64,000 nt of DNA, taken from the sequence record OZ035744.1; one strand, given 5' to 3'. The notes beneath the pieces are model-generated. The model saw nothing but the letters and a program-made list of their open reading frames with translations. It made no database searches and was not told the DNA's origin. The position numbers and the translations under genes were made by a program. Below are positions 5,521 through 62,310 of this stretch, piece after piece. The first letter of the stretch is position 1; each line of letters opens with the position of its first letter. This DNA comes from Felixounavirus LF110P1.

Positions 5521-6623
5521 TATTCATAATCCCTAATAACTAGCCCTACAGGGAACTGTAAAGACCCCTTACGAGTCATCTTCTGGAACTGAACCGTTAA
5601 AGGTTTCCCGATAAACTCTTCAGGATGTTCAGCAAGATACTGTTTCTTCTCGTGTGTAGTTTTCCATGAGACATCTACAAAGACGTTAGGAAGAGTCTCT
5701 ACAACGAACTTGCCATGACCACGTTTATCGGTCTTTACACCAGTCACTTTAAACTCTTCAGTGTGCATCTTCTTGTGCTTAATCAAGAAGTATGAACGGT
5801 GACCACACTCGTAGAAAGATTCTTCAGAGATTGAGCGGTACATTGCACCTTCAAACTTAGCTTCAACCCACTTATCATGAGCTTCATCAAACTCTTCCCA
5901 AGAATTTACACGACGAGACTTAACAGGGACAACTTTACAGCCATCTCTAAAGTCATTCAATGGTGAAGTCTCAATAATATCTCTACGCTCAGGCCACGTC
6001 TTAGTACTATCACAGATATCGTACCAGTAAAACTTAAGTAAATGTCTGTCAGGATTGTCTTCATTTTTAATCATGGAGACAATATCTTCTAAGTCCAACC
6101 CATGAGCATAGATTTCACCATCAAATTCATCAACATCTTTATGGAGCCTTAACATTGCCATAATGTCAGGTATTAGTTCAGTAGGTATTTTGTAAACAGT
6201 ATTCTCACGAGAATATGCTGTAAATACACTACCAATGCTTAAGTGCCTTGAAATCCTACAACGGACACCATCAAGTTTCGGTTGAGCATCAGCAGGGAAC
6301 TTCAGATACTTTGCATGGCTAACCTTTGCAGCATCATGAGCAAGTTGTACACCAACCTTCTCAGTGTTCTGTGCAGACTCTTTTGTGTAAGCATAACCTT
6401 TGCGGTCAACTTGCTTTTTATACTTAGCAGCAACTTCAAAGAGAGCTTGCTGTTCAGCATTACGCTCATTCTTTTTACCGATGTTCTTAGTCTCTGCTGT
6501 GTACTCTTCAAACATCATCTTACCATTTTCTTTACCGTAGGTTGTGATAACTTTGTCACCTACAGAAACACATGACCAGACATTGAAAGAGCCATCTTTA
6601 TTTTGTTTGTACAGTATTGTCAT
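5520..6623 (-). CDS. ATP-dependent DNA ligase
   Basis: adenylation motif PKLDGVRCR (KxDG); start placed at internal ATG (MTILYKQNK) preceded by GAGGA RBS rather than the track start 6659. Confidence 0.85.
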   Translation of the reverse strand: MTILYKQNKDGSFNVWSCVSVGDKVITTYGKENGKMMFEEYTAETKNIGKKNERNAEQQALFEVAAKYKKQVDRKGYAYTKESAQNTEKVGVQLAHDAAKVSHAKYLKFPADAQPKLDGVRCRISRHLSIGSVFTAYSRENTVYKIPTELIPDIMAMLRLHKDVDEFDGEIYAHGLDLEDIVSMIKNEDNPDRHLLKFYWYDICDSTKTWPERRDIIETSPLNDFRDGCKVVPVKSRRVNSWEEFDEAHDKWVEAKFEGAMYRSISEESFYECGHRSYFLIKHKKMHTEEFKVTGVKTDKRGHGKFVVETLPNVFVDVSWKTTHEKKQYLAEHPEEFIGKPLTVQFQKMTRKGSLQFPVGLVIRDYE

Positions 6624-6624
6624 T

Positions 6625-6816
6625 TTATTCCTCTGAGTGATACCAAGTATTGCAAGCATTACATGCGTAAAGCTCTAAGTCATTTTTATCCGGTTTATGA
6701 AAGCAGTTTGCTCCGCAGTGGCAACGGAATGGCCTTCCACCAACTGTCAGGATGAAGGATTGAACCTTTCCATCAGGAGTTCGTACAGCATTTTTATGCT
6801 TATCTTCTTTGTTCAT
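6625..6816 (-). CDS. zinc-finger small protein (hypothetical)
   Basis: 63 aa with CHCGANC...CNACN cysteine clusters. Confidence 0.4.
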   Translation of the reverse strand: MNKEDKHKNAVRTPDGKVQSFILTVGGRPFRCHCGANCFHKPDKNDLELYACNACNTWYHSEE

Positions 6817-24139: not shown

Positions 24140-26284
24140 ATGAACAAAGTACAGATTATTAAAAAGAATGGCTCACTTGAAGAACCTGATATCAAAAAAG
24201 TTTTAGCAGCAGTCACAAAGTCAGCTAACAGAGTTGGTTATAAAGAGCTTCCACCAGATGTTACTCAAGCTCTTGAGTCAGCATTTATGAGGATTCTGGT
24301 AAAGTCCACTAAGCAGAATAATTTGCTAATTTCGGTAAATGATATTCACAGTATTGTTGAGGGTGCTTTGGCAGAAGTCAATCACGAGATTTATGAGTCT
24401 TACTCAACATATAGAAATTACCGTAAAGAGGTTGCTCAAAATTGGGATGAACTCTACCAGAAGACTAAAGATACACTCTTCTTAGGTGACCGAGAAAACG
24501 CTAATTTTGACAGCAGTTTAATTTCTACAAAAGGTTCAATTATTCGTGGTTATCTGACTAAAGAAATCTTTAAACAGTACCATTTAACACCAGAGGAACT
24601 TGAAGCCATTGAAAAAGGGTTTATCTACATCCATGATTTAAGAGACCTAATTTTTGGTGGTATCAACTGTTGCCTGTTTGACATTGGTAAAGTCCTGAAA
24701 GGTGGCTTTGAAATGTCTGGCATCGAATATTGTGAACCGAAGTCTGTACTGTCAGCCTTACAGGTTATTGGTGATGTAGTTCTTTCAGCAACTGCACAGC
24801 AATTTGGTGGCTTTACTTTAGCAGAGATTGATAAGGTACTTGTACCGTATGCTAAGAAGTCTCTACACTATCATGCTGAGAAAGCAGCATCTTATGGTAT
24901 TCCTAAAGAACATTACCACAATTATGTCATGGAGCAGCTACAGATTGAACTGACTCAGGGTTTCCAGTCACTTGAAATGAAACTAAACACTGTACCTTGT
25001 AGTCGTGGGGATTTTGCATTCACAACTTTGACATTCGGGTTACTTGACTCAGATATGTCCAATGAAGATAACCGACTGCAATACATGATTGCAAGTACTC
25101 TCCTAGATGTTCGTATGAATGGACAAGGTAAGAGCAAGAAGCCTGTTGTATTCCCTAAACTGGTTTATATTTATGACCAGAAGAGACACGATGAGAATAT
25201 CTGTCAAGGCCACCTGTACAGTAAAGCTATTGAGTGTTGCTCTAAAGCAATGTATCCAGACTTCTTAAGTGTATCTGGTCATGGTGCTGTAGCAGAGGCT
25301 TTTGAGCGTTCTGGTAAGGTTATTTCACCAATGGGTTGCAGAGCTTTCTTGTCTCCATATCTTAATGAGGATGGGGAAGAGTTCTACGTTGGTCGTGCTA
25401 ACATTGGTGCTGTATCTTTGAACTTACCAATGATTTACCAGTATTCTAAAGAGAATGGATTAGACTTCTGGACAGAACTTGATAAATATCTCGAAATGAT
25501 TCGTAGCTTCCATAAGAAACGCTACGAAATGATTGCTAATATGCCAGCAAGTTCTAACCCTCTTGCATTCACACAAGGTGGTCTGTACAAAGGAACTAAG
25601 AAACCTACTGACAAGGTTGGTTGGGATATTGTGAAGTCCTTCACAGCTTCTTTTGGTGTTACTGCGCTTGATGAGTTGTCTGTTCTTGCTGAAGGTAAAC
25701 GACTTCATGAAGTTGGAAGCTATAGTTTTGCATATGATGTTCTGGCATACATCAACATGAAAACCGAAGAGTTTAAAAATGAAGATGGCTTCTTATATGC
25801 CGTCTATGGTACTCCAGCAGAATCACTATGTGGGACTCAGCTAAAACAGTTCAGAGATATGTTTGGGGTTATCAAAGGTGTTTCCGATAAGGAATACTTT
25901 ACAAACAGTTTCCATATGAATGTTGCAGCAGACATCTCGCCATTTGAGAAGCAGGACTTAGAAGAGCCATTCTTCCATATCTGTAGAGGCGGTAGAATCC
26001 AGTATGTAAGAGTAGCTAACCCAGAAAACTTAACAGCACTTAAAAGTTGTATTACAAGAGGGATGTTGAAAGGTTTCTATCAGGGGCTTAACTTTGACTT
26101 AGCAATCTGTGAACATTGTGGTAACAGACCAAAGGCTGATGTTGAAGAATGTGAGGTTTGCCATTCACATGATATCTCTGTGATTAACAGGGTGTGTGGG
26201 TATCTTGGATGGACTAAGATTAAAGGTGAATCCCGAATGAACGATGCAAAAATCGCTGAGATTCGTGATAGAGTCTCTATGTAA
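24140..26284 (+). CDS. nrdD: anaerobic ribonucleotide reductase (class III)
   Basis: 714 aa; N-terminal ATP-cone-like segment; C-terminal Zn/glycyl-radical region CEHCGN...CEVCHSHD...RVCGYLGW. Confidence 0.9.
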   Translation: MNKVQIIKKNGSLEEPDIKKVLAAVTKSANRVGYKELPPDVTQALESAFMRILVKSTKQNNLLISVNDIHSIVEGALAEVNHEIYESYSTYRNYRKEVAQNWDELYQKTKDTLFLGDRENANFDSSLISTKGSIIRGYLTKEIFKQYHLTPEELEAIEKGFIYIHDLRDLIFGGINCCLFDIGKVLKGGFEMSGIEYCEPKSVLSALQVIGDVVLSATAQQFGGFTLAEIDKVLVPYAKKSLHYHAEKAASYGIPKEHYHNYVMEQLQIELTQGFQSLEMKLNTVPCSRGDFAFTTLTFGLLDSDMSNEDNRLQYMIASTLLDVRMNGQGKSKKPVVFPKLVYIYDQKRHDENICQGHLYSKAIECCSKAMYPDFLSVSGHGAVAEAFERSGKVISPMGCRAFLSPYLNEDGEEFYVGRANIGAVSLNLPMIYQYSKENGLDFWTELDKYLEMIRSFHKKRYEMIANMPASSNPLAFTQGGLYKGTKKPTDKVGWDIVKSFTASFGVTALDELSVLAEGKRLHEVGSYSFAYDVLAYINMKTEEFKNEDGFLYAVYGTPAESLCGTQLKQFRDMFGVIKGVSDKEYFTNSFHMNVAADISPFEKQDLEEPFFHICRGGRIQYVRVANPENLTALKSCITRGMLKGFYQGLNFDLAICEHCGNRPKADVEECEVCHSHDISVINRVCGYLGWTKIKGESRMNDAKIAEIRDRVSM

Positions 26285-28763: not shown

Positions 28764-29279
28764 ATGTATCTGTCAAACCTAAAACGTTCTGCTGCAATGT
28801 CAGTGCTAAGACTCAGCTTTGAGGAACGTCAAGAGTTCATTGACTCCCACCAATACGACCCCTCAAACTCCAATCACATGATTCTCTGGAATCGTGAAAG
28901 TACTCGTGAAAGAGCACTATTCCGTTATTACCCACACTACACTATAGATAACCTGTATGAATTGTTTGTTGTGAAGAACACCATTACAGTGCTCAATAAA
29001 CTTTGCAGATACACAGGCAGTCAATCCTTCACATTAGGCCATCACAAACCTGTTACAAAGGGTGGTGAGCATCACTGTGCAAACTGGTTTATTCAGACTA
29101 AACTTGATAACCAGAAGCAAGGGGATAACCTTCTAAGCACCCCTAAGATGACCTACGAAGAGCAAGAGAAATATATCAAAAATAATATGCCAGATGTGCT
29201 TGACAACCACTATACAGATTTGGCAATATCTCTCCTGTTGAAGTTCGAGACAGTTTATAGGGCAACTTACAATGGCTAA
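28764..29279 (+). CDS. HNH-like endonuclease (candidate)
   Basis: GHHKPVTKGGEHHCANW...N segment loosely resembles an HNH motif. Confidence 0.3.
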   Translation: MYLSNLKRSAAMSVLRLSFEERQEFIDSHQYDPSNSNHMILWNRESTRERALFRYYPHYTIDNLYELFVVKNTITVLNKLCRYTGSQSFTLGHHKPVTKGGEHHCANWFIQTKLDNQKQGDNLLSTPKMTYEEQEKYIKNNMPDVLDNHYTDLAISLLLKFETVYRATYNG

Positions 29280-29550
29280 AGAAAAGTGGGAGATTTTACC
29301 ATTAGTCAGTGAAGGTGGTAATGGTTGTGAGATGTACATGATACGTGGTCATGTTCCAGAACCAATTGCGCTTGAGATGGTAAACAACTTTACAGATGGT
29401 TCTTACAAAGACTTAGGAGAGCCAACTATAAAGCATCAATGGGTAAAGCCTGTACCAGACAGCACAGGTAACTGTAGTGTACTTTACCACGTTGTAGACC
29501 CTGTAAAATGCAAATCTGCAATGGCAGTAACAAACGTAACCTTTGATTGA
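29272..29550 (+). CDS. hypothetical protein
   Basis: 92 aa ORF. Confidence 0.4.
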   Translation: MAKEKWEILPLVSEGGNGCEMYMIRGHVPEPIALEMVNNFTDGSYKDLGEPTIKHQWVKPVPDSTGNCSVLYHVVDPVKCKSAMAVTNVTFD

Positions 29551-29565: not shown

Positions 29566-30447
29566 ATGAAAACTGTTATTGAAGCCGTCATCACCGCACA
29601 AGAGAAATTCTTCCACACAGAAAAATTTAACATCATCCAATTCCCATCTGGAGAAATTGGTGGAAACTTCTCTGAAGATTTTGTTAAGTTTGCTGAGCGT
29701 AATGCTGGTAAGATTGATAATGTTATATTTACTGTACAGGGGTATGACAAAGATACACTGTTTGCATTAGCTTTGGCTAAGGATGCCGTTGACAGTCTTG
29801 TTCCCCAGAAATCAGCGATGAAAACCGTTGTTTTCGGGTTCTTACCAAATGCTCGATATGACCGCCACATGTTCAAAGGTGATGCAGCAGCACTGAAAGT
29901 CTTTGCCAACCTCGTTAATGCAATGGGTTTTGATGCAGTATGTGCTCTTGACCCTCACAGTAATGTTGCAGAAAACTTATTTAAGTGTTTTCAGAGCATG
30001 AAGCAAAAAGATGTGGCAGTACACTTTGCAAGTGACCCACGCATTGATTTCTTAGTAGCCCCAGATGCAGGTGCAGCTAAGAAGACTGAAGATGCCGCTA
30101 AAGAGGTGGATAAACCATATATCACAATGTCTAAAGTGCGTAACCTTAAGACTGGTGAAATTACTGGTATGCGAATCCTTGATGATGTTGATTTGACAGA
30201 TAAAACCGTCATGATTCTGGATGATATTTGTGATGGTGGGCGAACCTTCATAGAGGCAGCTAAACATCTTCGTGAAGCAGGTGCAAAACGTGTGGAACTC
30301 TATGTAACTCATGGTATTTTCTCTAAAGGTGTTGAAAACTTACTTGACAATGGTATTGACCATATCTACACTACAAACTCTTTGGGTGAAGCTAAAGACC
30401 GTGGCTTAACACATTACGCCCAAGTTACTGTAGTAACTATTGATTGA
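29566..30447 (+). CDS. ribose-phosphate pyrophosphokinase-like protein (PRPP synthetase family; candidate ADP-ribose pyrophosphokinase)
   Basis: 293 aa; phosphoribosyltransferase-type PRPP-binding loop VMILDDICDGGRTF; Prs-like length. Confidence 0.7.
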   Translation: MKTVIEAVITAQEKFFHTEKFNIIQFPSGEIGGNFSEDFVKFAERNAGKIDNVIFTVQGYDKDTLFALALAKDAVDSLVPQKSAMKTVVFGFLPNARYDRHMFKGDAAALKVFANLVNAMGFDAVCALDPHSNVAENLFKCFQSMKQKDVAVHFASDPRIDFLVAPDAGAAKKTEDAAKEVDKPYITMSKVRNLKTGEITGMRILDDVDLTDKTVMILDDICDGGRTFIEAAKHLREAGAKRVELYVTHGIFSKGVENLLDNGIDHIYTTNSLGEAKDRGLTHYAQVTVVTID

Positions 30448-30456
30448 AACTTTATA

Positions 30457-30478
30457 GGGGCTTGAAAGCCCCATTTTG
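30457..30478 (+). terminator. rho-independent terminator / intergenic hairpin
   Basis: GGGGCTTGAAAGCCCC then ATTTTG. Confidence 0.45.
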
Positions 30479-30492
30479 AGAGAGATTAAAAG

Positions 30493-32274
30493 ATGACTAA
30501 ATCACTTTATGCCGTACCAGCAGGTTTAAACGCAGATGCTTACAAATCTGGTCATGTTTACCAGTATCCTAGTGCAACAGAGTACTTGATGTTCAACCTG
30601 ACACCACGTAGTGACAAATGGTTTAACAGCCCTTTGGCAATTGACGGTGTAGTGGCTTTTGGTATTCAACGTTTCGTTAAAGATTACTTGATAGACCATT
30701 GGAACGCCACTTTCTTTGAACGTGACAAAAAAGAAGCAATTGACGAAATCTTAGAAGTCATGAACGGTGTTCTGGGCAAAGATGCTATTGGTCGAGAGCA
30801 TTGGGAAGCACTTCACGACTTAGGTTATCTGCCAGTCGAAGTATACGCTGTAGAAGAAGGCACAGTTGTTCCGATGCGTGTCCCAATGATTGTATTCCAG
30901 AACACTGTTTCAGGTTTCCATTGGGTAGCGGGGTATCTGGAAGATGCTTTCTCTGCTGAGATTTGGAAGGCTTGTACCATTGCAACTATTGCATTGCACT
31001 ACAAACGTATCTGTAAGAAGTGGGCTGACCTCACTTGTGACAACGACTTCCATTTACCTTATCAGTGCCATGACTTTGCTATGCGTGGTATGTCCGGCTT
31101 TACTGATGACGCATTTAACGCTGTAGGTCACTTAACCAGCTTTAAAGGAACTGATAGCTTCCCTGCTGTATACACTGCTAAACGAATCTATGGTCAGTCT
31201 TACCCAATCTCTGATATTGGTAGTTCTGTACCAGCCACTGAACACTCTGTAATGTGTGCAAACATTGCTTGGGAAGGTGGTAATGAATTGATTGAAGATG
31301 AAAGACGCTTTAAAGGTGAGTTACAAACCTTCCGTCGTTTTTTAACAGAAACTTACCCAACTGGTATTGCAAGTGTTGTTTCAGATACTTATAATTTCTG
31401 GAGAACTGTATCAGTCATATTACCAGAACTCCGTAAAGAGATTATGGAACGCAATGGCAAACTGGTAATTCGTCCTGATTCTGGAGACCCTGTGCATATT
31501 GTCACAGGATACAAAGCAATCCATTTAGAGTGTGCTAAAAAGGCTTATTACGAACACTTAAGCAAGCTTGAAGCCAGCGACACAATGTTGAATGCTGTTC
31601 TGAACATGAAGCTTGAAAACATCAATTATGGTATTGCTGGATGGCTACTGTCAGAAGGCTACGAAATGGTTGTTGACAGAGAAGACTTTGAAGTTGCTGA
31701 TACAGTACTGCTGAAGAATGCTTATATGGTTGGTTCTGCAAACGTTGTAACACGTCCTGTAGCAGAGATTGATGGAGCTATTAAGACCCTGTATAACATC
31801 TTCGGAGGGACTATCAACTCTAAAGGATTCAAGGTACTGGATGAGCATATCGGCCTTATCTATGGTGACTCTATCACGCTGGAACGTGCAAACGAAATCC
31901 TGAAGCGCCTTTATGAAATGGGTTTTGCAAGCTCTAACGTGGTGTTTGGTGTAGGCTCTTACACTTACCAGTACATGACTCGTGACACATTTGCATTTGC
32001 TGTCAAAGCAACTCTTGCAAGCATTGGTGGTAAAGAGATTATGCTTGCAAAAGACCCTAAAACAGATAGCGGTGTTAAGAAATCTGCCTTTGGTGGTGTA
32101 GCGCCTATGTGGGACGGTGATAAACTGAAAGCTGTAGATGGCTACGGATTCCAGAGTTTTGCAGATGTACTTGACCACCAAGCTTGTGCTTTACGTTTAG
32201 TCTTTAGTGACTCTGAGCAGTTTGGTTACACAACTCTTGGTGATATTCGAAATAATATTGACAAGCAGCTTTAA
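30493..32274 (+). CDS. nicotinamide phosphoribosyltransferase-like protein (NadV/NAMPT family)
   Basis: 593 aa with NAMPT-like N-terminus (MTKSLYAVPAGLNADAYKSGH) and length; adjacent to Prs-like gene. Confidence 0.75.
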   Translation: MTKSLYAVPAGLNADAYKSGHVYQYPSATEYLMFNLTPRSDKWFNSPLAIDGVVAFGIQRFVKDYLIDHWNATFFERDKKEAIDEILEVMNGVLGKDAIGREHWEALHDLGYLPVEVYAVEEGTVVPMRVPMIVFQNTVSGFHWVAGYLEDAFSAEIWKACTIATIALHYKRICKKWADLTCDNDFHLPYQCHDFAMRGMSGFTDDAFNAVGHLTSFKGTDSFPAVYTAKRIYGQSYPISDIGSSVPATEHSVMCANIAWEGGNELIEDERRFKGELQTFRRFLTETYPTGIASVVSDTYNFWRTVSVILPELRKEIMERNGKLVIRPDSGDPVHIVTGYKAIHLECAKKAYYEHLSKLEASDTMLNAVLNMKLENINYGIAGWLLSEGYEMVVDREDFEVADTVLLKNAYMVGSANVVTRPVAEIDGAIKTLYNIFGGTINSKGFKVLDEHIGLIYGDSITLERANEILKRLYEMGFASSNVVFGVGSYTYQYMTRDTFAFAVKATLASIGGKEIMLAKDPKTDSGVKKSAFGGVAPMWDGDKLKAVDGYGFQSFADVLDHQACALRLVFSDSEQFGYTTLGDIRNNIDKQL

Positions 32275-32288
32275 AAGTATATGATAAG

Positions 32289-32312
32289 AGGCTCCCGTAG
32301 GAGCCTCTTTAA
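32289..32312 (+). terminator. rho-independent terminator
   Basis: GAGGCTCC-CGTA-GGAGCCTC then TTT. Confidence 0.55.
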
Positions 32313-32327
32313 TTTCTGGAGAAAACT

Positions 32328-32663
32328 ATGAAAATCAAAGAGATGAACATCAACATTGTCTTAGAAGAACGTTGGGAGAACATCAATAAGCCTGAAGATG
32401 GCCATAAGTTCCTTAACAAAATTTTAGTAGCAGCTAAAGAAGAACTGACTGGTAAGATTGCAGCAGCAATCACAATAAAGGTCTGCGTAAAAGGTCTTCC
32501 AGACAATCACCAATTTGCACTTGACGAGTTTAAAGGAAGCTTCTACAATCCAAACAAACAGATGCTTGAAAGTAACTTTGCAGTGTCTACAAGTATCGTT
32601 CATGACAGAAGCTTTATCCTTTACAAGAATATGAGAGGTGAGTCATGCAAGCATATTGGATAG
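32328..32663 (+). CDS. hypothetical protein
   Basis: 111 aa ORF. Confidence 0.4.
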   Translation: MKIKEMNINIVLEERWENINKPEDGHKFLNKILVAAKEELTGKIAAAITIKVCVKGLPDNHQFALDEFKGSFYNPNKQMLESNFAVSTSIVHDRSFILYKNMRGESCKHIG

Positions 32664-32821
32664 AAATTTTGCTGTCACTTGGTAGTGTAGCAGTATTTGT
32701 TTACCTCCTTTGTAAGTACTTTGCAGAGCACAAAAAATGTGACTACTGTAATGGAGAGGGGTACATAAGGGCAGGATGTTGCCCTATGTGTGGTGGTTCT
32801 GGTAAAATGTTTAATAAGTAA
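32645..32821 (+). CDS. small membrane zinc-ribbon protein (hypothetical)
   Basis: 58 aa ORF (below track cutoff): hydrophobic N-terminus then CDYCNG...CPMCGG. Confidence 0.35.
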   Translation: MQAYWIEILLSLGSVAVFVYLLCKYFAEHKKCDYCNGEGYIRAGCCPMCGGSGKMFNK

Positions 32822-46749: not shown

Positions 46750-48300
46750 TCCTTATACAATCTCTTTCCATCACCTTTCCAGAATCTTCCCACTGATTCG
46801 ATAGAACCTATCTCATACCTTAAAAGCAATAACTCTATAGTCTACGCTATAACCTCTTATCAAATCAACTTAAATATAAGCCCATAACCCGAAAGGGAAG
46901 GGCAACCGTTTAAACGCTCTATAAAGCTCTATAACAGCCTTATCAACCTAACTTAAGGGATTGCATTAACTCACCCTTAAAAGCCCTTTATAAAGCTTCT
47001 CAGAGACTTAAAAGAATCTTATAAGGGTGTAAGCTTTATTATCTCGTTAGCTATCTTGTGAACTACTAAACAAGCCCCTTGATAGTAACTGAAAAGTATG
47101 TTATAGGGGCTATAAAGTAGCTTAAAAGTTGCTTAAAAGTTACGTAAATGCTAGCCCCCTTAACATTCTCTTAACAATTTCTTAACAATCCCTACATAGT
47201 TATGCTTTTAAGGCACTTGTTAGCAACTTGTTAGCCCCTTGTTAAATCTCTGTTACAACCATGTAAAAGCCTTGTAAGAGTCTTTGACATAGCCTTAAAA
47301 GCTCCTGTAAAGCCCTATAAAGAGGTATCTGTACAGTTGGGGTGTAATTACTAGGAAGTGACTTAAAAGAGCTTATAAGGGGCTATAGAGAGCTTTTAAG
47401 AGGGCTATTTAGAGAATCACTAAGAAAGAGAGGGAACGATAAGAAAAGAGATAGTGACCATGTTAATAGCTTGTTAAAAAGATTAAATACTTGTTAGAAA
47501 CTTGTTAATTATCTTAACAAAATAACTCTTTAAAATTAACTTGTTAGCTCTTGTTAGTCATCTGTTAAGATTCTGTAAAGCTTACTCAGCACTTGTTAAG
47601 AGACTGTTACGCTCTTGTTAGTTCTGTTAAGAATCTATTAAGACCTTTGAAGAGTTGTTAAGAAGGTGTTAGAACTGTTAAGAGATTGTTAAGGATATTT
47701 TAAAATTTTGCAAAGTACTTGTAAGGGAGCTGTTAAGGGCTACCAAGCAGATATACATCTTCTACAGATATTTTTGAGTTCCTTCAAAGACCCTAAAAAA
47801 TGACTTGATAGTCCTATTTTATAAAAATTTTAAGATTCTGAATAATTACCTATACAGCCTTTTAAAAATACAGGTAATAACAGGCTTATAAGATACCTTG
47901 TTAGTACCGTGTTAGACCTTGTGAGATAAGGTCTGTGAAGATATTCCTGTTAAGTTTGTTAAAACAGTCTATATAGAGGCTTAGTAATACCTAGTGAACA
48001 CCTATAGAGGGTATCATAGCTTACCTAGAGATTAAGAGGTGTATAGGAGCTTCTAAGAGGGTGTAGAGGGATGGTTAAGGTGATTGTATAGGTTGTTAAG
48101 AAGGCTTGTTAGAAGAGTGTTTAGATGGCTATTTAGAAGGGCTATACAGAGGGCTATTGAGACCACTAGATAGTTACTAAGATACTATATAGTACTATAT
48201 AACTATATAGAGAGTAAGATTAAGAAGGTTGTTAAGAAGGATAGATATTTTGTTCACATATGATGGTGACCCAGAGGTTGGGACAACCGATAAAATTTTA
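46750..48300. repeat. ORF-free array of phased degenerate 8-mers (YTGTTARG, CTTAAAAG, CTATAAAG and reverse complements) at about 10-12 bp spacing
   Basis: dozens of copies, e.g. CTTGTTAG 47540, 47550; CTGTTAAG 47562; CTTGTTAAG 47592; CTTGTTAG 47614; CTGTTAAG 47624; inverted CTTAACA run 47160-47190; no ORF of 60 aa or more on either strand. Confidence 0.7.
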
Positions 48301-48342
48301 TAAAAGTAAAAAGCCCCCAATTAAGGAGGCTCTTAAGATATT

Positions 48343-48966
48343 TTAAATCAGTGTTTCCAGAACTGTTTTTAGTGATGACTTGGTTGTCTGATAAAAATGA
48401 GTAAAGCCATTGTTGTTATCAAATACCTGCATCATGATATCATCTCCCTTGATTGGGTACACTCGGATATCATAGTGAAAACCATTAAAGACACAAGAAC
48501 CACTACAGAATGTACTAAAGTCAGCCACTGAGATATACTCTTCATGTCCTGTGATTTTTATACAAACACCTTTACTCGGTCTCTTAGGATTGATATCTTG
48601 CATCACAGACATACTCTGTCCACCAAGAGATACCATAGTGACCACTTTACGGTTCTTCTGTCTAAAGTACATCTTAACTTTCTGCAAAGTGTCTTCATAG
48701 AATGGATAAGACCTTTCTACAAAGATTCCTTCAAGTGGCTCTTTACCATTTTCAACTTCTCTGTTATGCCGTACTGCAAAGATAATTTGTTCGAACCAGT
48801 CAAGATTTTCTTCGGAGAGTGCTTCCCGAACATCCTTCCAGTCAAGTACTAAGTAGTTACCTTCAACTTCTTTTAAGTTATCTTTTTCCATATCTATCAC
48901 ACCATTATCGTAAAACTTGATATTCTGGTACTGCGAATTTATTACTATTGTTCTTGATGAGGTCAT
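48343..48966 (-). CDS. hypothetical protein
   Basis: 207 aa ORF, last gene of minus-strand block. Confidence 0.45.
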   Translation of the reverse strand: MTSSRTIVINSQYQNIKFYDNGVIDMEKDNLKEVEGNYLVLDWKDVREALSEENLDWFEQIIFAVRHNREVENGKEPLEGIFVERSYPFYEDTLQKVKMYFRQKNRKVVTMVSLGGQSMSVMQDINPKRPSKGVCIKITGHEEYISVADFSTFCSGSCVFNGFHYDIRVYPIKGDDIMMQVFDNNNGFTHFYQTTKSSLKTVLETLI

Positions 48967-57999: not shown

Positions 58000-58076
58000 C
58001 TCTGTTTAGCTCAGCTTGGTAGAGCGTTCCGTTTGGGGCGGTAAGGCCGGAGGTTCAAGTCCTCCAACAGAGACCA
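58000..58076 (+). tRNA. tRNA-Pro (anticodon TGG), CCA encoded
   Basis: cloverleaf by hand: acceptor CTCTGTT/AACAGAG, T-arm GGAGG-TTCAAGT-CCTCC, anticodon loop TTTGGGG. Confidence 0.6.
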
Positions 58077-58083
58077 AATTAAT

Positions 58084-58158
58084 GTTCCAGTAGACAAAAT
58101 GGTAAAGTCACCACTCTTTCAAAGTGGATATCTGAGGGTTCAAATCCCTTCTGGAACG
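58084..58158 (+). tRNA. tRNA-Glu (anticodon TTC)
   Basis: acceptor GTTCCAG/CTGGAAC, anticodon stem CCACT/AGTGG, loop CTTTCAA, T-loop GGTTCAAATCC. Confidence 0.6.
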
Positions 58159-58165
58159 CCAGTTT

Positions 58166-58240
58166 TGACAGAAGACCAATTACAGCAAACTTAATCTACT
58201 CATCTGACACGAAATCGGACAAAGAAGATATTTGGTCTGG
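58166..58240 (+). repeat. inter-tRNA repeat copy 1 (CAGAAGACC-N3-TACAGCAA ... GGTCTGG)
   Basis: family of at least four copies between tRNAs (58166, 58335, 58725, 58811); possible fifth at about 61115. Confidence 0.5.
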
Positions 58241-58251
58241 TCATTGAGAAT

Positions 58252-58325
58252 TGCGGGTATAGAGAAAGGGCGTCTCACATGTCTCATTAGCATGGTATCG
58301 GCAGGTTCGACTCCTGCACCCGCCT
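58252..58325 (+). tRNA. tRNA-Met (anticodon CAT), initiator-like 1:72 mismatch
   Basis: T-arm GCAGG-TTCGACT-CCTGC, anticodon loop CTCATTA, D-stem GAGA/TCTC. Confidence 0.6.
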
Positions 58326-58334
58326 CCAATTTTG

Positions 58335-58392
58335 CAGAAGACCGTATTCAGCAACAAAATACTTTTTGCGGATAAAAGAAAAAACACGGTCT
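58335..58392 (+). repeat. inter-tRNA repeat copy 2
   Basis: GCAGAAGACCGTATTCAGCAA...CGGTCTGG. Confidence 0.5.
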
Positions 58393-58405
58393 GGCAATGT
58401 ATTAA

Positions 58406-58479
58406 GGTTAGGAAGCACATAAGGTATGTGCGGTCGCCTGTTAAGCGAATGGCACAGGGTTCGAATCCCTGACTAACCG
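58406..58479 (+). tRNA. tRNA-Asn (anticodon GTT)
   Basis: T-loop GGGTTCGAATCCC, anticodon loop CTGTTAA, acceptor GGTTAGG/ACTAACC. Confidence 0.6.
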
Positions 58480-58491
58480 CCAAATTTAAAT

Positions 58492-58576
58492 GTGTCGTTA
58501 TCCCGTAGATGGTAGCGGTGGGGACTGTAAATCCCTTGTCATTGAGACTCGGTAGGTTCGACTCCTACACGACACA
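58492..58576 (+). tRNA. tRNA-Tyr (anticodon GTA), long variable arm
   Basis: 85 nt; anticodon loop CTGTAAA; T-arm GTAGG-TTCGACT-CCTAC; acceptor GTGTCGT/ACGACAC. Confidence 0.6.
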
Positions 58577-58584
58577 CCAATAAA

Positions 58585-58659
58585 GGTTATGTAGTTTAAT
58601 TTGGTTAAAATACTCCCCTGTCACGGGAGATGATGAGGGTTCAAATCCCTTCGTAACCG
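58585..58659 (+). tRNA. tRNA-Asp (anticodon GTC)
   Basis: anticodon stem CTCCC/GGGAG, loop CTGTCAC; T-loop GGGTTCAAATCCC. Confidence 0.6.
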
Positions 58660-58724
58660 CCAATTTTGAGAGGGCTATTTAGCCCCTCCCTTAAAGAGTT
58701 CTTACGAGTATTCTTTAAAGGAGC

Positions 58725-58797
58725 AGAAGACCAAATACAGCAAGAATGTATGAAATTTCAAGCCAATTTAATTTTGAAAATTTAAAACTTGGTCTGG
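58725..58797 (+). repeat. inter-tRNA repeat copy 3
   Basis: CAGAAGACCAAATACAGCAA...TTGGTCTGG. Confidence 0.5.
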
Positions 58798-58810
58798 CTC
58801 AACAAATTTA

Positions 58811-58942
58811 CAGAAGACCGTTTACAGCAAAACTTAAACAATCTATTTCTCCGGTAAAGAAAAGGCGAAGGTTCGATTCCTTCACTCGGCAGATGTCGAG
58901 TTGGTGTAATGGTAGCACTTAAGATGATAAACAACGGTCTGG
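58811..58942 (+). repeat. inter-tRNA repeat copy 4 (extended, contains tRNA-like T-arm and D-arm fragments)
   Basis: CAGAAGACCGTTTACAGCAA ... GCGAAGGTTCGATTCCTTC ... GTTGGTGTAATGGTAGCAC ... CGGTCTGG. Confidence 0.45.
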
Positions 58943-58943
58943 T

Positions 58944-59086
58944 AATTATCTTTGTAGATAAGTTATTAAGCTTACCTGTGAGTATGCGACCACAAAGGGT
59001 GAAAGGGTAAATTCTAGATTTAAACCCAACAAGGCACATCGCTACAGACCTTAAGCAAGTCTGGGTAGCTTATCTACAAAGATAAT
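58944..59086 (+). ncRNA. candidate structured RNA: 17-bp perfect inverted repeat enclosing about 110 nt
   Basis: TTATCTTTGTAGATAAG (58944) pairs with CTTATCTACAAAGATAA (59069); no ORF; sits between tRNAs. Confidence 0.3.
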
Positions 59087-59091
59087 TTAAT

Positions 59092-59165
59092 GGAAGTGTA
59101 GCAGAATGGTGATGCGGCAGACTTTTAATCTGACAGGCGATGGGTTCGAATCCCTCCACTTCTAC
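59092..59165 (+). tRNA. tRNA-Lys (anticodon TTT)
   Basis: acceptor GGAAGTG/CACTTCT, loop CTTTTAA, T-loop GGGTTCGAATCCC; paralogue of tRNA at 60757. Confidence 0.55.
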
Positions 59166-59172
59166 CAATATG

Positions 59173-59246
59173 GTTCAGTCGCAGATAAGGTAATGCAGGG
59201 GTTTCATAAGCCCTATGAATGTGGGTTCGATTCCCATCTGAACCTC
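59173..59246 (+). tRNA. tRNA-Met or Ile2 (anticodon CAT)
   Basis: acceptor GGTTCAG/CTGAACC (perfect), loop TTCATAA, T-loop GGGTTCGATTCCC. Confidence 0.55.
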
Positions 59247-59251
59247 CAATT

Positions 59252-59323
59252 GTGGGTTAGCATAAATGGTAATGCAAACGGCTGATAACCGTTAGAAGAG
59301 GGTTCGATACCCTCACCTACAAC
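59252..59323 (+). tRNA. tRNA-Ile (anticodon GAT)
   Basis: anticodon stem AACGG/CCGTT, loop CTGATAA; T-arm GAGGG-TTCGATA-CCCTC. Confidence 0.6.
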
Positions 59324-59341
59324 CAATTTCAATAAAGTTGT

Positions 59342-59370
59342 TGACATTGAGATGTGACTACTTTATAGTA
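59342..59370 (+). promoter_or_regulatory. sigma70-like promoter inside tRNA cluster
   Basis: TTGACA - 17 nt - TATAGT. Confidence 0.5.
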
Positions 59371-59661
59371 GATAAAATAATTCATAATATGTATAATTCA
59401 AACACCAATACATGAGCGTTAGACGTAACACAATGTGGGGAAATTTGTTGTACATATTCTGAATAGTTTTCGTTGCGTAGCGTCTATTTTGCAAATTTAA
59501 AATAAATGCAAACGACAATGTTTTTCTGGCAGTAGCTTGATAGGCTAAACACCAGTGAGGTCTTCCAATCCCTCATCAAAGAATTTGGCGTACTAGCCCA
59601 CGGTATGATTAATAAAGTGGGCATCTTTAAGGGCTTTCTAAGAGAGTCTTTAAAGATTAAT

Positions 59662-59735
59662 GCACCCTTAGTTCAATTGGATAGAGCAACGGTCTTCTAA
59701 ATCGTTAGTTACAGGTTCGAATCCTGTAGGGTGTA
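59662..59735 (+). tRNA. tRNA-Arg (anticodon TCT)
   Basis: acceptor GCACCCT/AGGGTGT, D-arm GTTC...GAGC, loop CTTCTAA, T-loop AGGTTCGAATCCT. Confidence 0.6.
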
Positions 59736-59880
59736 CCAATTAGTTAGCAGATTACTTAGACGACCTTAGCGGGTCTTCCTGTAGGGAGGTGGTCTGTATC
59801 TCATGTTTTCCAGAACATGTAAATAATCTGAGAAGGGGCTTTACAGTGTTGAGATAATACGGTAAGCTTCGAATTATAGT

Positions 59881-59960
59881 ATGGGACGATGTTAAGACTC
59901 TAAGGCATGAGCAACGGCTTCCAACACCGTTTCAAAGGGGTTCAACTCCTCCGTCCCATG
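59881..59960 (+). tRNA. tRNA, isotype uncertain (possibly Trp, anticodon CCA), atypical extended D region
   Basis: perfect acceptor ATGGGAC/GTCCCAT, T-loop GGGTTCAACTCC, CCA encoded; D-arm does not fold canonically by hand. Confidence 0.4.
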
Positions 59961-59976
59961 CCAAAGATTGTTTCGG

Positions 59977-60060
59977 AGAGAGTGGCGGTCAACGGAGACC
60001 AACCAGCCTTGAAAACTGGTGCTGCTGGAAACGGTACGGGTTCGACTCCTGCACTCTCTG
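59977..60060 (+). tRNA. tRNA-Ser (anticodon TGA), long variable arm
   Basis: 84 nt; acceptor AGAGAGT/ACTCTCT; D-stem GGTC/GACC; loop CTTGAAA; 16-nt variable region; T-loop TTCGACT; CCA encoded. Confidence 0.5.
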
Positions 60061-60087
60061 CCAAAATGATTTTTTAAGGTGATGATT

Positions 60088-60429
60088 ATGAAGAAAGGTT
60101 CAGTAGGTGAAATTGCTACACAATTAGCTTTCCTCAAAAGAGGTTATGAAGTGTATTCACCAGCTACAGATAATGCAAAGTATGACTTTCTAGTTCACAA
60201 AGATGGTTTGATTGAGACTGTTGAGGTAAAATCAACCTCAGTCAAAAGAGGTGAACTTTGGAGAGTGCAACTGAAAAGAGTTCGTTCTAACAAGAATGAA
60301 AATAGAATAATGAATTTTGATAACTCTCAAGTTGATTACTTAGCTGTTTACATTGAACCACTTGATAAAGTCATCATCTACAAAGCTAAAGATATCAAGT
60401 CTAAGACTGAACTTAGCTTAAAGATTTAA
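60088..60429 (+). CDS. small protein embedded in tRNA cluster (possible PD-(D/E)xK-type nuclease)
   Basis: about 113 aa; D...E-x-K-like arrangement (DFLVHKDGLIETVEVK); RBS AAGGTGA. Confidence 0.3.
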   Translation: MKKGSVGEIATQLAFLKRGYEVYSPATDNAKYDFLVHKDGLIETVEVKSTSVKRGELWRVQLKRVRSNKNENRIMNFDNSQVDYLAVYIEPLDKVIIYKAKDIKSKTELSLKI

Positions 60430-60671
60430 TACTCCGTCCATGCTTGTTCGCATTGTCGGTTTATCCCTCGTGTTGTCGTACACACTGATAAAGCACCTAG
60501 TAGGTGTCACGGAGAAGAGATAGTATCAAGCTCTCCAAAGGTTCTAGTCACCGGATTAAACAAGACTATGCAAAGGCCTTCTTAGGTCTTTTTAGAGGGC
60601 TTCTAAGGTTATTACAGCTTGTTGTGGAACCTTGTTGCTTAGGTTCTTAGAAGTTCTCTAAAAAGATTTAA

Positions 60672-60746
60672 TGGGAGATTGACGGTAATTGGTAAACCTA
60701 CCATCCTTAGAAGTTGGTGTTTGAGGGTTCGAATCCCTTGTCTCCT
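60672..60746 (+). tRNA. tRNA, probably Leu (anticodon TAG), short variable arm
   Basis: acceptor GGGAGAT/GTCTCCT (with G-U), D-loop AATTGGTA, loop CTTAGAA, T-loop GGGTTCGAATCCC. Confidence 0.45.
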
Positions 60747-60756
60747 ACCAAATTAA

Positions 60757-60829
60757 TGCAGGTGTAGCAAAATGGTTATGCGGCTGACTCTTAATCAGTA
60801 AGACGATGGGTTCAATTCCCTCCACCTGT
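60757..60829 (+). tRNA. tRNA-Lys (anticodon CTT)
   Basis: anticodon stem GCTGA/TCAGT, loop CTCTTAA; T-loop GGGTTCAATTCCC. Confidence 0.55.
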
Positions 60830-60838
60830 ACCATACAT

Positions 60839-60911
60839 TGGGGATGTAGTTTACATGGTTAAAACATAAGTTTTGCAAACTTAAGTACAGGGTTCAATTC
60901 CCTGCTTCTCC
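60839..60911 (+). tRNA. tRNA-Ala (anticodon TGC)
   Basis: anticodon stem TAAGT/ACTTA, loop TTTGCAA; T-loop GGGTTCAATTCCC. Confidence 0.6.
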
Positions 60912-60920
60912 ACCAATTAG

Positions 60921-60992
60921 TGCATCCATAGTTTAAACGGGAAAATTACAGTCTTCCAAACTGAGGTTGAGGGTTCGATTCCCTCTGGATGC
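60921..60992 (+). tRNA. tRNA-Gly (anticodon TCC)
   Basis: perfect acceptor GCATCCA/TGGATGC; loop CTTCCAA; T-loop GGGTTCGATTCCC. Confidence 0.6.
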
Positions 60993-61002
60993 TCCAAATT
61001 AA

Positions 61003-61076
61003 TGCTGCTTTCGTATAATTGGCTATTACACATCCCTTGTAAGGATGGAAATGCGGGTTCGAGTCCTGTGAGCAGC
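61003..61076 (+). tRNA. tRNA-Thr (anticodon TGT)
   Basis: anticodon stem CATCC/GGATG, loop CTTGTAA; T-loop GGGTTCGAGTCC. Confidence 0.6.
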
Positions 61077-61080
61077 ACCA

Positions 61081-61172
61081 ATTCAGAGGTCAAGTGAAAG
61101 ACCGCTGGTGTCAACTGAAGACCGTAACAAATTCCACGGAGTTGAGTTAGCGGCACAACTTCAGACCTCTTT
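61081..61172 (+). other. intergenic inverted-repeat element (AGAGGTC ... GACCTCT) containing a GAAGACC motif
   Basis: CAGAGGTCAAGTGAAAGACCGCTGGTGTCAACTGAAGACCG...CAACTTCAGACCTCT; no ORF. Confidence 0.3.
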
Positions 61173-61174
61173 CA

Positions 61175-61246
61175 CACTCGCTTAGTTTATATGGTAAAAC
61201 ATCACCCTTACAAGATGAAGAAAAAGGTTCAAGTCCTTTAGTGAGT
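61175..61246 (+). tRNA. tRNA-Val (anticodon TAC)
   Basis: loop CTTACAA; T-arm AAAGG-TTCAAGT-CCTTT; acceptor ACTCGCT/AGTGAGT. Confidence 0.5.
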
Positions 61247-61250
61247 ACCA

Positions 61251-61325
61251 TGTTCCAGTATCCCAATTGGCAGAGGATGCAAGCTCAAACCTTGTATTAG
61301 TGACGGTTCGAATCCGTCTTGGAAC
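61251..61325 (+). tRNA. tRNA, probably Leu (anticodon CAA), short variable arm
   Basis: acceptor GTTCCAG/TTGGAAC; D-loop AATTGGCAGA; stem GCAAG/CTTGT, loop CTCAAAC; T-arm GACGG-TTCGAAT-CCGTC. Confidence 0.45.
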
Positions 61326-61333
61326 ACCAATTT

Positions 61334-61406
61334 TGCAGGATTAGTTCAAATGGATAGAGCAACAGTCTACGAAGCTGTTAATAGGGGTTCGAATCCCTTA
61401 TCCTGC
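61334..61406 (+). tRNA. tRNA-Arg (anticodon ACG)
   Basis: perfect acceptor GCAGGAT/ATCCTGC; loop CTACGAA; T-loop GGGTTCGAATCCC. Confidence 0.6.
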
Positions 61407-61428
61407 GCCAGATAAAAAAGGTGATACT

Positions 61429-61671
61429 ATGCAAACATTAACAGTAGTTGAACATGAAAACTGTGAGAGTATTGAGTTTGTCAGGGTCATTGGTGTTGAA
61501 CACCACATTTTCTTAAAAGTGGGATACTTATGTGACCCCGCTAGAGTAGAAAGATTTATACGTGATTGTTTTGGTGGTAGACATCTGAAGAGTGTTATTT
61601 TTGAGACAGTTTTACCAGAAGGTTTAGAAACGAATAATAACATTTACCTCCTTACGAGGATTAGACAATGA
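61429..61671 (+). CDS. hypothetical protein (within tRNA cluster)
   Basis: 80 aa ORF with AAAGGTGA RBS. Confidence 0.4.
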   Translation: MQTLTVVEHENCESIEFVRVIGVEHHIFLKVGYLCDPARVERFIRDCFGGRHLKSVIFETVLPEGLETNNNIYLLTRIRQ

Positions 61672-62225
61672 GATACTTAAAGTATGCTTCATGGATTTTC
61701 CTAGCTTTGCTAGAACCATTAGCAGCAACCTTAGCAGTTATCTTAGCACCTTTCGTAGTTCCATTTTACAGTGAGAAGAAAGGCCACTTACCTTTCGGAT
61801 TTAGATGGATGGAGACATATGACAACCCAATTGATGGTGACGAAGGTCATATCGAACGATGGGCTAAGATTAGAAAGATTGGTAAGCTGGGTGTCTACAT
61901 GCAGAGAGTCGGATGGCTCTGGAGAAACAAAGCTTATAACTTCTCTTACCATGTATTAGGAAGAGATGTAAAAGATGTTACTAAGTGGAAAGGTAATATC
62001 AACGTAAGTTCTGACCCTGAAGATAATCAGACAGGTTATCTCCTAATGTGGAACAGTAATGCTTGGGGATTATTCGCTTTTATCCCATCAATTAAAGTCT
62101 TTGGTAAACAGTTTTACTGGAGAATTTATATTGGATGGAAACTAAAAAGTGTTGTCCCAGAAGAAAGAGCATTCTCAAGGGAAAGAGTTATGTTGGCATT
62201 CTTTATTCATCCACTGAGAAAGTAA
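61668..62225 (+). CDS. hypothetical membrane-associated protein (within tRNA cluster)
   Basis: 185 aa; N-terminal hydrophobic helix (WIFLALLEPLAATLAVILAPFVVPF). Confidence 0.45.
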   Translation: MRYLKYASWIFLALLEPLAATLAVILAPFVVPFYSEKKGHLPFGFRWMETYDNPIDGDEGHIERWAKIRKIGKLGVYMQRVGWLWRNKAYNFSYHVLGRDVKDVTKWKGNINVSSDPEDNQTGYLLMWNSNAWGLFAFIPSIKVFGKQFYWRIYIGWKLKSVVPEERAFSRERVMLAFFIHPLRK

Positions 62226-62232
62226 AGATTTA

Positions 62233-62305
62233 AAGGGGATTAGTTTACAAGGTTAAAACCTCGGTCTTTGAAATCGAAGAAGTTGGTTCAATTCCAACAT
62301 CCCCC
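62233..62305 (+). tRNA. tRNA-Gln (anticodon TTG)
   Basis: D-stem GTTT/AAAC; anticodon stem TCGGT/ATCGA, loop CTTTGAA; T-arm GTTGG-TTCAATT-CCAAC. Confidence 0.55.
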
Positions 62306-62310
62306 GCCAA

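Follow-up and report, generated by a model that had tools for sequence, protein, structure and literature searches.

Does a phage gene pair that combines a Prs-like protein with a NAMPT-like protein encode a conventional nicotinamide salvage route, or the NAD+ reconstitution pathway NARP1, in which the two enzymes act as an ADP-ribose pyrophosphokinase (Adps) and a nicotinamide ADP-ribose transferase (Namat)? Such a pair lies in the window (i.e. the whole 64-kb stretch of DNA that was analysed) from the genome of Felixounavirus LF110P1. The first-pass annotation had described a Prs-family protein directly before a 593-aa NAMPT/NadV-family protein, and the open reading frames (ORFs), Pfam, PHROG and NCBIfam all agree with this description. 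Both ORFs are present where it had placed them, on the plus strand at 29566..30447 (293 aa, Prs-like) and 30493..32274 (593 aa, NAMPT-like), and they are spaced by 45 nt, an adjacency expected of NARP1 genes. We consider it very probable (about 93%) that the pair is a minimal two-gene NARP1 operon of this Felixounavirus, with enzyme activities and an anti-defence phenotype assigned by orthology. The finding is a re-identification of an already known system and not the discovery of a candidate, because the genus Felixounavirus supplied the founding NARP1 example.

That example is Bas63 (Escherichia phage JohannRWettstein). The window is collinear with positions 22,371-87,100 of Bas63 at ∼93% nucleotide identity and has the same gene order, with nrdD/nrdG upstream and rIIA/rIIB downstream of the pair. 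The first predicted protein, Adps, is identical to Bas63_0079 (gp79) at 284 of 293 residues (97%), and the second, Namat, to Bas63_0080 (gp80) at 581 of 593 residues (98%); both alignments are gap-free between proteins of equal length. None of the 9 substitutions in Adps and the 12 in Namat falls on a mapped catalytic or specificity site. Synonymous codon changes outnumber nonsynonymous ones by 31:9 in adps (pN/pS 0.079) and by 91:12 in namat (pN/pS 0.036); both genes are under purifying selection. Bas63 also resembles the window in the genomic position of the pair, the intergenic hairpin, the clamp residues and the Namat insertion described below. It differs in that a 345-bp gene, bas63_0081, lies directly downstream of the pair and is absent in the window. 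Antisense ORFs also occur within adps and namat (e.g. 31651-32181, minus strand, 176 aa), and these were set aside as mechanical ORFs inside well-supported genes.

The Prs-like protein is recognized as a family member by Pfam (Pribosyltran 4e-12 and Pribosyl_synth 2e-9) and PHROG 619 (2.5e-99), and passes the broad subfamily model TIGR01251 (135 bits, cutoff 113). It lies far under every cutoff at the Prs equivalog level, where its best score is 111 vs 296 bits. Its identity is 32% to the structurally characterized ICP1 Adps and 25% to E. coli Prs. The loop VMILDDICDGGRTF corresponds to residues 215-228 and contains the PP loop DDICDGGRT (residues 219-227; 30220..30246, plus strand), a remodelled ATP-donor site whose role in Adps has been described (PMC13586617). 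In the alignment, this loop matches D212-D213-I214-C215-D216...S220 of ICP1 Adps, whereas E. coli Prs has DDMIDTGGT. Residues R97, H131, D167, K190, D219, D220, C222, D223 and F228 are common to ICP1 Adps. The acceptor groove and catalytic hairpin lysine of the latter (i.e. R87, H121, D161, K185, D212, D213 and D216) are all kept, with K190 as the catalytic lysine and counterpart of the essential K185. In ICP1 Adps, the ADP-ribose (ADPR) adenine is clamped by the aromatic residues F18 (from the neighbouring protomer) and F92. These align to H17 and M102, with F15/F16 and F103 adjoining, although the alignment is uncertain in this region at 32% identity. In the alignment, Adps ends ∼20 residues short of the C-terminus of E. 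coli Prs, and the C-terminal alpha11-alpha12 regulatory/filament module of PRPS is absent. The protein thus departs from canonical Prs in its equivalog score, its PP loop and its C-terminus.

The NAMPT-like protein matches Pfam NAPRTase (1.8e-34) and NAMPT_N, PHROG 448 (5e-202), NF006629 (469 bits, cutoff 405) and the SpbetaL1 Namat crystal structures 9w5w/9w5x (E=1.4e-127). The catalytic and NAD+-binding residues of SpbetaL1 Namat have their matches in D15, Y17, F195, R198, D221, A248, R327, D329, G458 and D459, and the ATEHS segment that bears the catalytic histidine is identical in the aligned proteins. The Nampt-like core is present, with the NAM-stacking Phe/Tyr, the hydrogen-bonding Asp, the R306-equivalent Arg and the RPDSGD motif. 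The clamp that confers selectivity for ADPR-PP, composed of the selectivity-clamp helix (SCH) and the stacking residue of the selectivity-clamp loop (SCL), is present as well. The SCH GSYTYQYMTRD (residues 488-498; 31954..31986, plus strand) fits the published Namat signature GSX-phi-X-phi-X-phi-TRD, in which positions 3 and 7 are aromatic (here Y490 and Y494). By contrast, Xcc Nampt (7yqo) has GGALLQKVDRD at this site and a shorter SCL. The SCL PRSDKWFNSPL (residues 38-48; 30604..30636, plus strand) aligns to SpbetaL1 R40 and carries K42-W43, as in Bas63; with a Lys at this site, stacking on the adenine falls to the residue that follows, and Bas63 Namat has been named as an example (PMC12774641). 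The comparison of characterized Adps/Namat with Prs/NadV proteins, which had been suggested as a check, thus found the signatures of the former and not those of Nampt/PRPS.

We then consider the neighbouring genes. The first-pass annotation saw no NMN adenylyltransferase (NMNAT) in the window and noted that one elsewhere in the genome, together with enzyme specificity for ribose-5-phosphate and PRPP, would speak against NARP1. When the NadD and NadR proteins of E. coli and the NadR-like NMNAT of KVP40 served as queries (tblastn and phmmer --max), neither the window nor the complete Bas63 genome yielded a match below E=0.8; a Prs probe used as positive control gave 1e-16. The Bas63 annotation lists no NMNAT, and a NadR tblastn search against all phages returned 773 records, of which the 30 sampled contain no Felixounavirus and are all T5-like, jumbo or KVP40-type. 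Macro, RyR and Nudix domains were not detected in the flanking genes by Pfam hmmscan at E<=0.01, a search that is less sensitive than the published HHpred analysis. The four small flanking genes (28764-29279, 29272-29550, 32328-32663 and 32645-32821) all belong to PHROGs without assigned function. Two upstream genes, encoding 171 and 92 aa, were checked for linkage to NARP1 because they share with adps-namat the interval between two strong terminators. The 92-aa gene is found in Ounavirinae only. The 171-aa gene (PHROG 3500, with weak HNH similarity) is the sole flanking gene with homologues outside Ounavirinae; it was rejected as a NARP1 accessory gene, as its neighbour in Stephanstirmvirinae is a UvrD-type helicase, and neither Adps nor Namat is encoded close by. 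With no accessory gene for a Macro-domain or RyR-domain protein matched on either side, the pair is, judged by its gene content, the minimal two-gene form of NARP1.

In the proposed pathway, a host SIR2, TIR or SEFIR NADase defence would split NAD+ into ADP-ribose and nicotinamide. Adps would transfer the beta,gamma-pyrophosphate of ATP to the distal ribose of ADP-ribose, producing ADPR-PP (and AMP), and Namat would let nicotinamide displace the pyrophosphate of ADPR-PP to give NAD+ and PPi. NAD+ would be regenerated directly, with neither an NMN intermediate nor an NMN adenylyltransferase, and the restored NAD+ pool would permit phage replication. NARP1 was discovered in Bas63_0079/Bas63_0080 by Osterman et al. 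(bioRxiv 10.1101/2024.02.11.579819), who reported that (i) deletion of Bas63 genes 79-80 lowers plating ∼20-fold on SIR2-HerA cells; (ii) the recovery of NAD+ depends on these genes, as does ADPR-PP, a new metabolite; (iii) ADPR-PP is seen solely in wild-type Bas63 infection of defended cells; and (iv) the phenotype is retained in a host without pncC and nadR. ADPR-PP had not previously been described in biology. Both reactions have been shown in vitro with the SpbetaL1, ICP1, DyoEdafos and P. foliorum enzymes; the Bas63-type enzymes are known by in vivo genetics and metabolomics, and the in vitro enzymology comes from more distant homologues. SpbetaL1 NARP1 counters type I Thoeris, DSR1, DSR2 and SEFIR, while Bas63 counters SIR2-HerA.

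A conventional salvage route would use Prs to make PRPP from ribose-5-phosphate and NadV/Nampt to make NMN, leaving host NadR/NadD to complete NAD+. The names used by Pfam, PHROG and NCBIfam fit this reading, as do the pass against NF006629 (469 vs 405 bits), the same names in the GenBank annotations of ∼250 relatives and the ability of SpbetaL1 Namat to make NMN from PRPP, in vitro at about half the rate of human Nampt. However, the Bas63 effect persists without host pncC/nadR, and ADPR-PP is detected in infected defended cells. An Adps homologue used ADPR, and a Namat homologue favoured ADPR-PP when offered both substrates. In the window itself, Namat has the adenine clamp that is absent from Nampt, and Adps has neither a Prs-level equivalog score (111 vs 296 bits) nor the PRPS C-terminal module. 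The salvage reading is already largely refuted for the Bas63 orthologue, and we regard it as very unlikely here. Since Namat homologues retain some PRPP-to-NMN activity in vitro, the window Namat may nevertheless have some NMN output.

An extended or variant pathway could be NARP1-AP, with a Macro-domain ADPR-1''-phosphate phosphatase, RyDEP-coupled NARP1, or NARP2 with an NMNAT. A Macro-domain phosphatase occurs in ∼15% of NARP1 operons, others adjoin a RyR-domain glycosidase, and the pair in the window has four small genes without assigned function beside it. These neighbours, however, show no Macro, RyR or Nudix match (Pfam, E<=0.01, again with hmmscan being less sensitive than HHpred), no NMNAT match exists in the window or Bas63, and the 171-aa gene is unlinked to NARP1 outside Ounavirinae, which makes such a variant highly improbable. 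That LF110P1 carries decaying or inactive copies seems next to negligible, given full-length ORFs, intact catalytic residues at all mapped positions and changes relative to Bas63 that are overwhelmingly synonymous (pN/pS 0.08 and 0.04). The preference for NARP1 (Adps + Namat) over Prs + NadV expressed in the first-pass annotation is thus well borne out by the 97%/98% identity to the Bas63 pair, the same gene order and the presence of the specificity signatures.

The same annotation had assigned each gene its own terminator hairpin, which is correct for namat and only partly so for adps. Downstream of namat, the terminator scan identified a strong intrinsic-terminator-like hairpin that closes the unit (32286..32309, plus strand), with a 10-bp stem followed by the T-rich tail UUAAUUUCU (fold −17.4 kcal/mol, z −3.6). 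The 45-nt gap after adps has only a GC hairpin with a 6-bp stem, GGGGCU-UGAA-AGCCCC, followed by AUUUUGA (30457..30472, plus strand; fold −12.6 kcal/mol, z −2.9), which is under the threshold of the scan and was not called. This intercistronic hairpin is kept in Bas63 and Mooglevirus Sf13 and missing in Kolesnikvirus; it may terminate transcription weakly or in part, or influence RNA stability.

Compared with SpbetaL1 Namat, the window Namat is ∼100 residues longer (76 at 351-426, ∼15 at 258-276 and 4 in the SCL) and has K42-W43 in place of R40. The largest addition is an Ounavirinae-specific insertion of ∼76 residues (351-426; 31543..31770, plus strand) that is unaligned to 9w5w/9w5x and is absent from SpbetaL1 Namat, ICP1 Namat and Nampt. 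It was matched by tblastn in 253 records, all of them Ounavirinae. Its identity is 45% to Mooglevirus Sf13 (vs 82% for the remaining Namat) and 24% to Kolesnikvirus (vs 50%), so by these comparisons the insertion is a fast-diverging part of the protein, with a conserved core GYE[MV]VV..EDF. Searched alone, it gave only noise in Pfam (E<=10) and the PDB sequences, and the searched text of the structural study of Namat (PMC12774641) makes no mention of it. It could be a functional add-on (e.g. an element for regulation, oligomerization or the docking of Adps, or a surface by which a host NARP1 inhibitor is evaded) as opposed to a neutral loop decoration, but we consider a functional role rather doubtful.

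Among the known systems, SpbetaL1 Namat (9w5w, 9w5x; PMC12774641) and ICP1 Adps (PMC13586617) share with the window the catalytic core, the SCH GSxTYQYxTRD, the DDICD motif and the hairpin lysine, while ICP1 Adps differs in its overall sequence (32% identity) and in F18/F92, which do not appear to be conserved in position. NARP2 of Vibrio phage KVP40 (Nampt + NMN adenylyltransferase) is alike in that a phage rebuilds NAD+ via a NAMPT-family enzyme. It requires an NMNAT and uses PRPP as substrate, whereas the window has no NMNAT match, an adjacent Adps and the Namat clamp. NARP1-AP of Vibrio phage Gary (Adps + Macro-domain Adpp + Namat; bioRxiv 10.64898/2026.01.28.702374) shares both core enzymes and differs in its Macro-domain gene, none of which was matched in or beside the operon of the window. 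Cellular PRPP synthetase and Nampt (i.e. E. coli Prs, Xanthomonas 7yqo and human NAMPT) have the same folds and core chemistry. By contrast, E. coli Prs has a DDMID instead of a DDICD PP loop, 25% identity to Adps and a C-terminal regulatory/filament module, and Nampt is without the aromatic SCH residues. Judging by published work, NARP1 of the window should overcome ADPR-releasing defences but not aRES, which produces ADPR-1''-phosphate; rescue from aRES is not expected because there is no Macro-domain gene, as can be inferred from the study of NARP1-AP (bioRxiv 10.64898/2026.01.28.702374).

NARP1 is an established phage counter-defence against SIR2, TIR and SEFIR NADases. Nothing mechanistically new emerges here, because the founding experiments were carried out in Bas63, which belongs to the same genus and whose two proteins are 97-98% identical. 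The labels 'ribose-phosphate pyrophosphokinase' and 'nicotinamide/nicotinate phosphoribosyltransferase' are still used by Pfam, PHROGs, NCBIfam and almost all GenBank records. Automatic annotation therefore hides an anti-defence system carried by hundreds of Felix O1-like phages, among them many proposed for therapy or biocontrol.

The two-gene observation is confirmed: adps (29566–30447, 293 aa) and namat (30493–32274, 593 aa) are open reading frames on the + strand, 45 nt apart, as the first-pass annotation describes them, and the loop quoted there (VMILDDICDGGRTF) occurs in the translation of 29566–30447. Their Prs- and NAMPT-family affiliations are recovered with Pfam, PHROG and NCBIfam. 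Adps matches PF00156 (phosphoribosyltransferase, 4e-12), PF14572 (PRPP-synthetase, 2e-9) and PHROG 619 (2.5e-99); the sole NCBI-type model that it passes is the broad subfamily TIGR01251 (135 bits versus a cutoff of 113), and it falls far below all curated Prs equivalog cutoffs (e.g. 111 versus 296 bits). Namat matches the NAPRTase and NAMPT_N domains (PF04095, 1.8e-34) and PHROG 448 (5e-202), and passes NF006629 (469 versus 405 bits). PHROGs 16547 and 15800 match only its N- and C-terminal halves, perhaps because Namat genes were called as split or truncated in other phages.

The claim that each gene has its own terminator stands for namat, which is followed by a hairpin with a 10-bp stem and a T-rich tail (32286–32309, −17.4 kcal/mol), but not for adps. 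The intercistronic GC hairpin (30457–30472, 6-bp stem, −12.6 kcal/mol) is followed only by AUUUUGA, a weak U-tract, and is not called by the terminator scan. It is kept in Bas63 (Escherichia phage JohannRWettstein) and Mooglevirus Sf13 but is absent from Kolesnikvirus, where the adps–namat spacing is 13 nt; it could attenuate read-through or stabilize the transcript. In the Escherichia phage phiSUSP1 (Suspvirus), a putative homing-endonuclease gene lies between adps and namat (919–1410 of comparison sequence L012), which marks the operon junction as a target for mobile elements.

A stretch of ∼4 kb around the pair has matches in 257 phage records at 80–96% identity, and nearly all named records among them are Felix O1-like phages with Escherichia, Salmonella, Shigella or Citrobacter hosts. 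GU169904.1 ('Staphylococcus phage SA1') and MG065668.1 ('Campylobacter phage A126') also carry Felixounavirus sequence (94–98% identity to the window), probably through contamination or mislabelling of these GenBank entries. Collinearity with BASEL phage Bas63 (MZ501086) runs from 22,371 to the Bas63 end at 87,100 (61,173 of the 64,000 bases of the window aligned, ∼93% identity); the rest of the genome thus corresponds to the Bas63 structural module (terminase through tail fibres). Genes 79 and 80 of Bas63 occupy the same position as the pair, with nrdD/nrdG and a few small genes before them and rIIA/rIIB after them. Gap-free alignments give 97% identity for Adps (284/293) and 98% for Namat (581/593). 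None of the 9 and 12 differences, respectively, falls at a mapped functional site. The nucleotide changes are overwhelmingly synonymous (pN/pS 0.08 for adps and 0.04 for namat), which indicates that both genes are under purifying selection.

The 345-bp gene bas63_0081 (6325–6669 of comparison sequence L001), directly 3′ of namat in Bas63, FSL SP-107 and Tribble, is missing from the window, where the bas63_0082 homologue comes directly after the terminator 3′ of namat (32275–32330). The window nrdD (anaerobic ribonucleotide reductase, 24140–26284) is a single uninterrupted 714-aa reading frame, whereas the Bas63 annotation gives two joined pieces separated by the homing-endonuclease gene bas63_0068; for ∼740 bp of Bas63 in this region (47,827–48,569) the window offers no equivalent. 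The window also has 26 clustered tRNA genes on its + strand (58000–63585), which correspond to the tRNA region at the Bas63 genome end; one of them, tRNA-Arg(acg) (61335–61410), sits in a stretch without a Bas63 match (61335–61667).

NARP1, a phage NAD+ rebuilding pathway, was first found in Bas63 genes 79–80 (Osterman et al., bioRxiv 10.1101/2024.02.11.579819). In that study, their deletion lowered Bas63 plating ∼20-fold on SIR2-HerA cells, they were needed for NAD+ recovery, and ADPR-PP, a previously undescribed metabolite, was seen only with wild-type phage in defended cells. The phenotype was still present in a pncC and nadR host mutant. Purified homologues from SpbetaL1 made ADPR-PP from ADPR and ATP and formed NAD+ from ADPR-PP and nicotinamide, with a preference for ADPR-PP over PRPP. 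Type I Thoeris, DSR1, DSR2 and SEFIR were likewise neutralized by NARP1, whereas type II Thoeris, which acts without NAD+ depletion, was not (bioRxiv 10.1101/2024.02.11.579819).

The SpbetaL1 Namat structure combines a conserved Nampt-like core with an adenine 'selectivity clamp', consisting of a helix motif (GSX-phi-X-phi-X-phi-TRD, with positions 3 and 7 aromatic) and a variable loop contributing a stacking residue (PMC12774641). Alignment to PDB 9w5x, with the same numbering as that paper, places the core positions of the window protein at D15, Y17, F195, R198, D221, A248, R327, D329, G458 and D459, the clamp helix at residues 488–498 (GSYTYQYMTRD, with Y490 and Y494) and the clamp loop at K42–W43. 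Bas63 Namat has the same Lys arrangement, with stacking by the residue after Lys (PMC12774641). By contrast, in a bona fide Nampt from Xanthomonas (7yqo), GGALLQKVDRD takes the place of the clamp helix and the loop is shorter. In ICP1 Adps, the key residues are R87, H121, D161, K185 (an essential hairpin lysine), D212, D213 and D216; its PP loop is remodelled, and the alpha11–alpha12 module at the C terminus of PRPS is lost (PMC13586617). The aligned residues of the window Adps are R97, H131, D167, K190, D219, D220 and D223; its PP loop reads DDICDGGRT versus DDMIDTGGT in E. coli Prs, and in the alignment it stops short of the last ∼20 residues of the latter. The positions of the two phenylalanines that hold the ADPR adenine in ICP1 are not conserved, as they align with H17 and M102, with phenylalanines adjoining, in a part where the alignment has only 32% identity.

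A conventional salvage route, in which the pair would be Prs and NadV, is contradicted by the published genetics of the Bas63 orthologue and by the sequence evidence. An NMNAT elsewhere in the genome, together with enzyme specificity for ribose-5-phosphate and PRPP, had been named beforehand as the refuting observation for NARP1. Six-frame searches by tblastn and by unfiltered phmmer with NadD and NadR of E. coli and the NadR-like NMNAT of KVP40 gave no match better than E = 0.8 in the window, in line with the first-pass annotation, or in the complete Bas63 genome, while E. coli Prs, the positive control, recovered Adps at 1e-16. The Bas63 annotation lists no NMNAT. NadR relatives exist in T5-like phages, jumbo phages and KVP40, and no Felixounavirus is among the phage matches sampled. 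In Klebsiella phage phi1_175008 (Stephanstirmvirinae; 1–1562 of comparison sequence L010), NadR and PnuC, a transporter of nicotinamide riboside, are encoded near each other; this is another type of NAD+ acquisition module in phages, unrelated to the window. The NARP1 interpretation is supported by near-identity to the founding genes, the Namat clamp, the Adps signatures and the lack of an NMNAT match.

Extended forms of NARP1 are known: NARP1-AP adds a Macro-domain ADPR-1''-phosphate phosphatase and overcomes aRES defence, and in another a RyR-domain glycosidase channels cyclic ADPR signals into the pathway. The genes on either side of the pair match PHROGs of unknown function, and none matches Macro, RyR or Nudix domains in a Pfam scan at E ≤ 0.01. 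A 171-aa gene (28764–29279) just upstream of the pair, in the same terminator-bounded unit, belongs to PHROG 3500 and has weak HNH-endonuclease similarity (E = 2e-4). It was ruled out as a NARP1-linked accessory because its ∼40% identical Stephanstirmvirinae homologues adjoin a UvrD-type helicase gene, with no NARP1 genes found nearby; its adjacency in the window thus reflects lineage synteny. The window therefore carries a minimal two-gene NARP1 which, by extension from the NARP1-AP work, should give no protection against aRES.

The window Namat is ∼100 residues longer than the crystallized SpbetaL1 enzyme, a difference due mostly to a 76-residue insertion (residues 351–426; 31543–31770, + strand) that separates the RPDSGDP strand from the GDS loop; SpbetaL1 Namat, ICP1 Namat and Nampt all lack this insertion. 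Its tblastn matches comprise 253 records, all Ounavirinae-type in genome size and naming (Felixounavirus, Mooglevirus and Suspvirus, with a diverged form in Kolesnikvirus). Its rate of divergence is roughly double that of the remainder of Namat (45% versus 82% identity to Sf13; 24% versus 50% to vEam_PM_6), conservation being limited to a short GYE[MV]VV..EDF core. No Pfam family or PDB structure matches it, and the main text of PMC12774641, which modelled Bas63 Namat, does not mention it. The insertion is most likely a tolerated surface decoration, though it may have a functional role.

NARP1 is already known, with its type example from the same genus as the window phage. The value of the present finding lies in annotation, as databases still list the pair as Prs and NAMPT, and in the Namat insertion of the Ounavirinae, so far uncharacterised.
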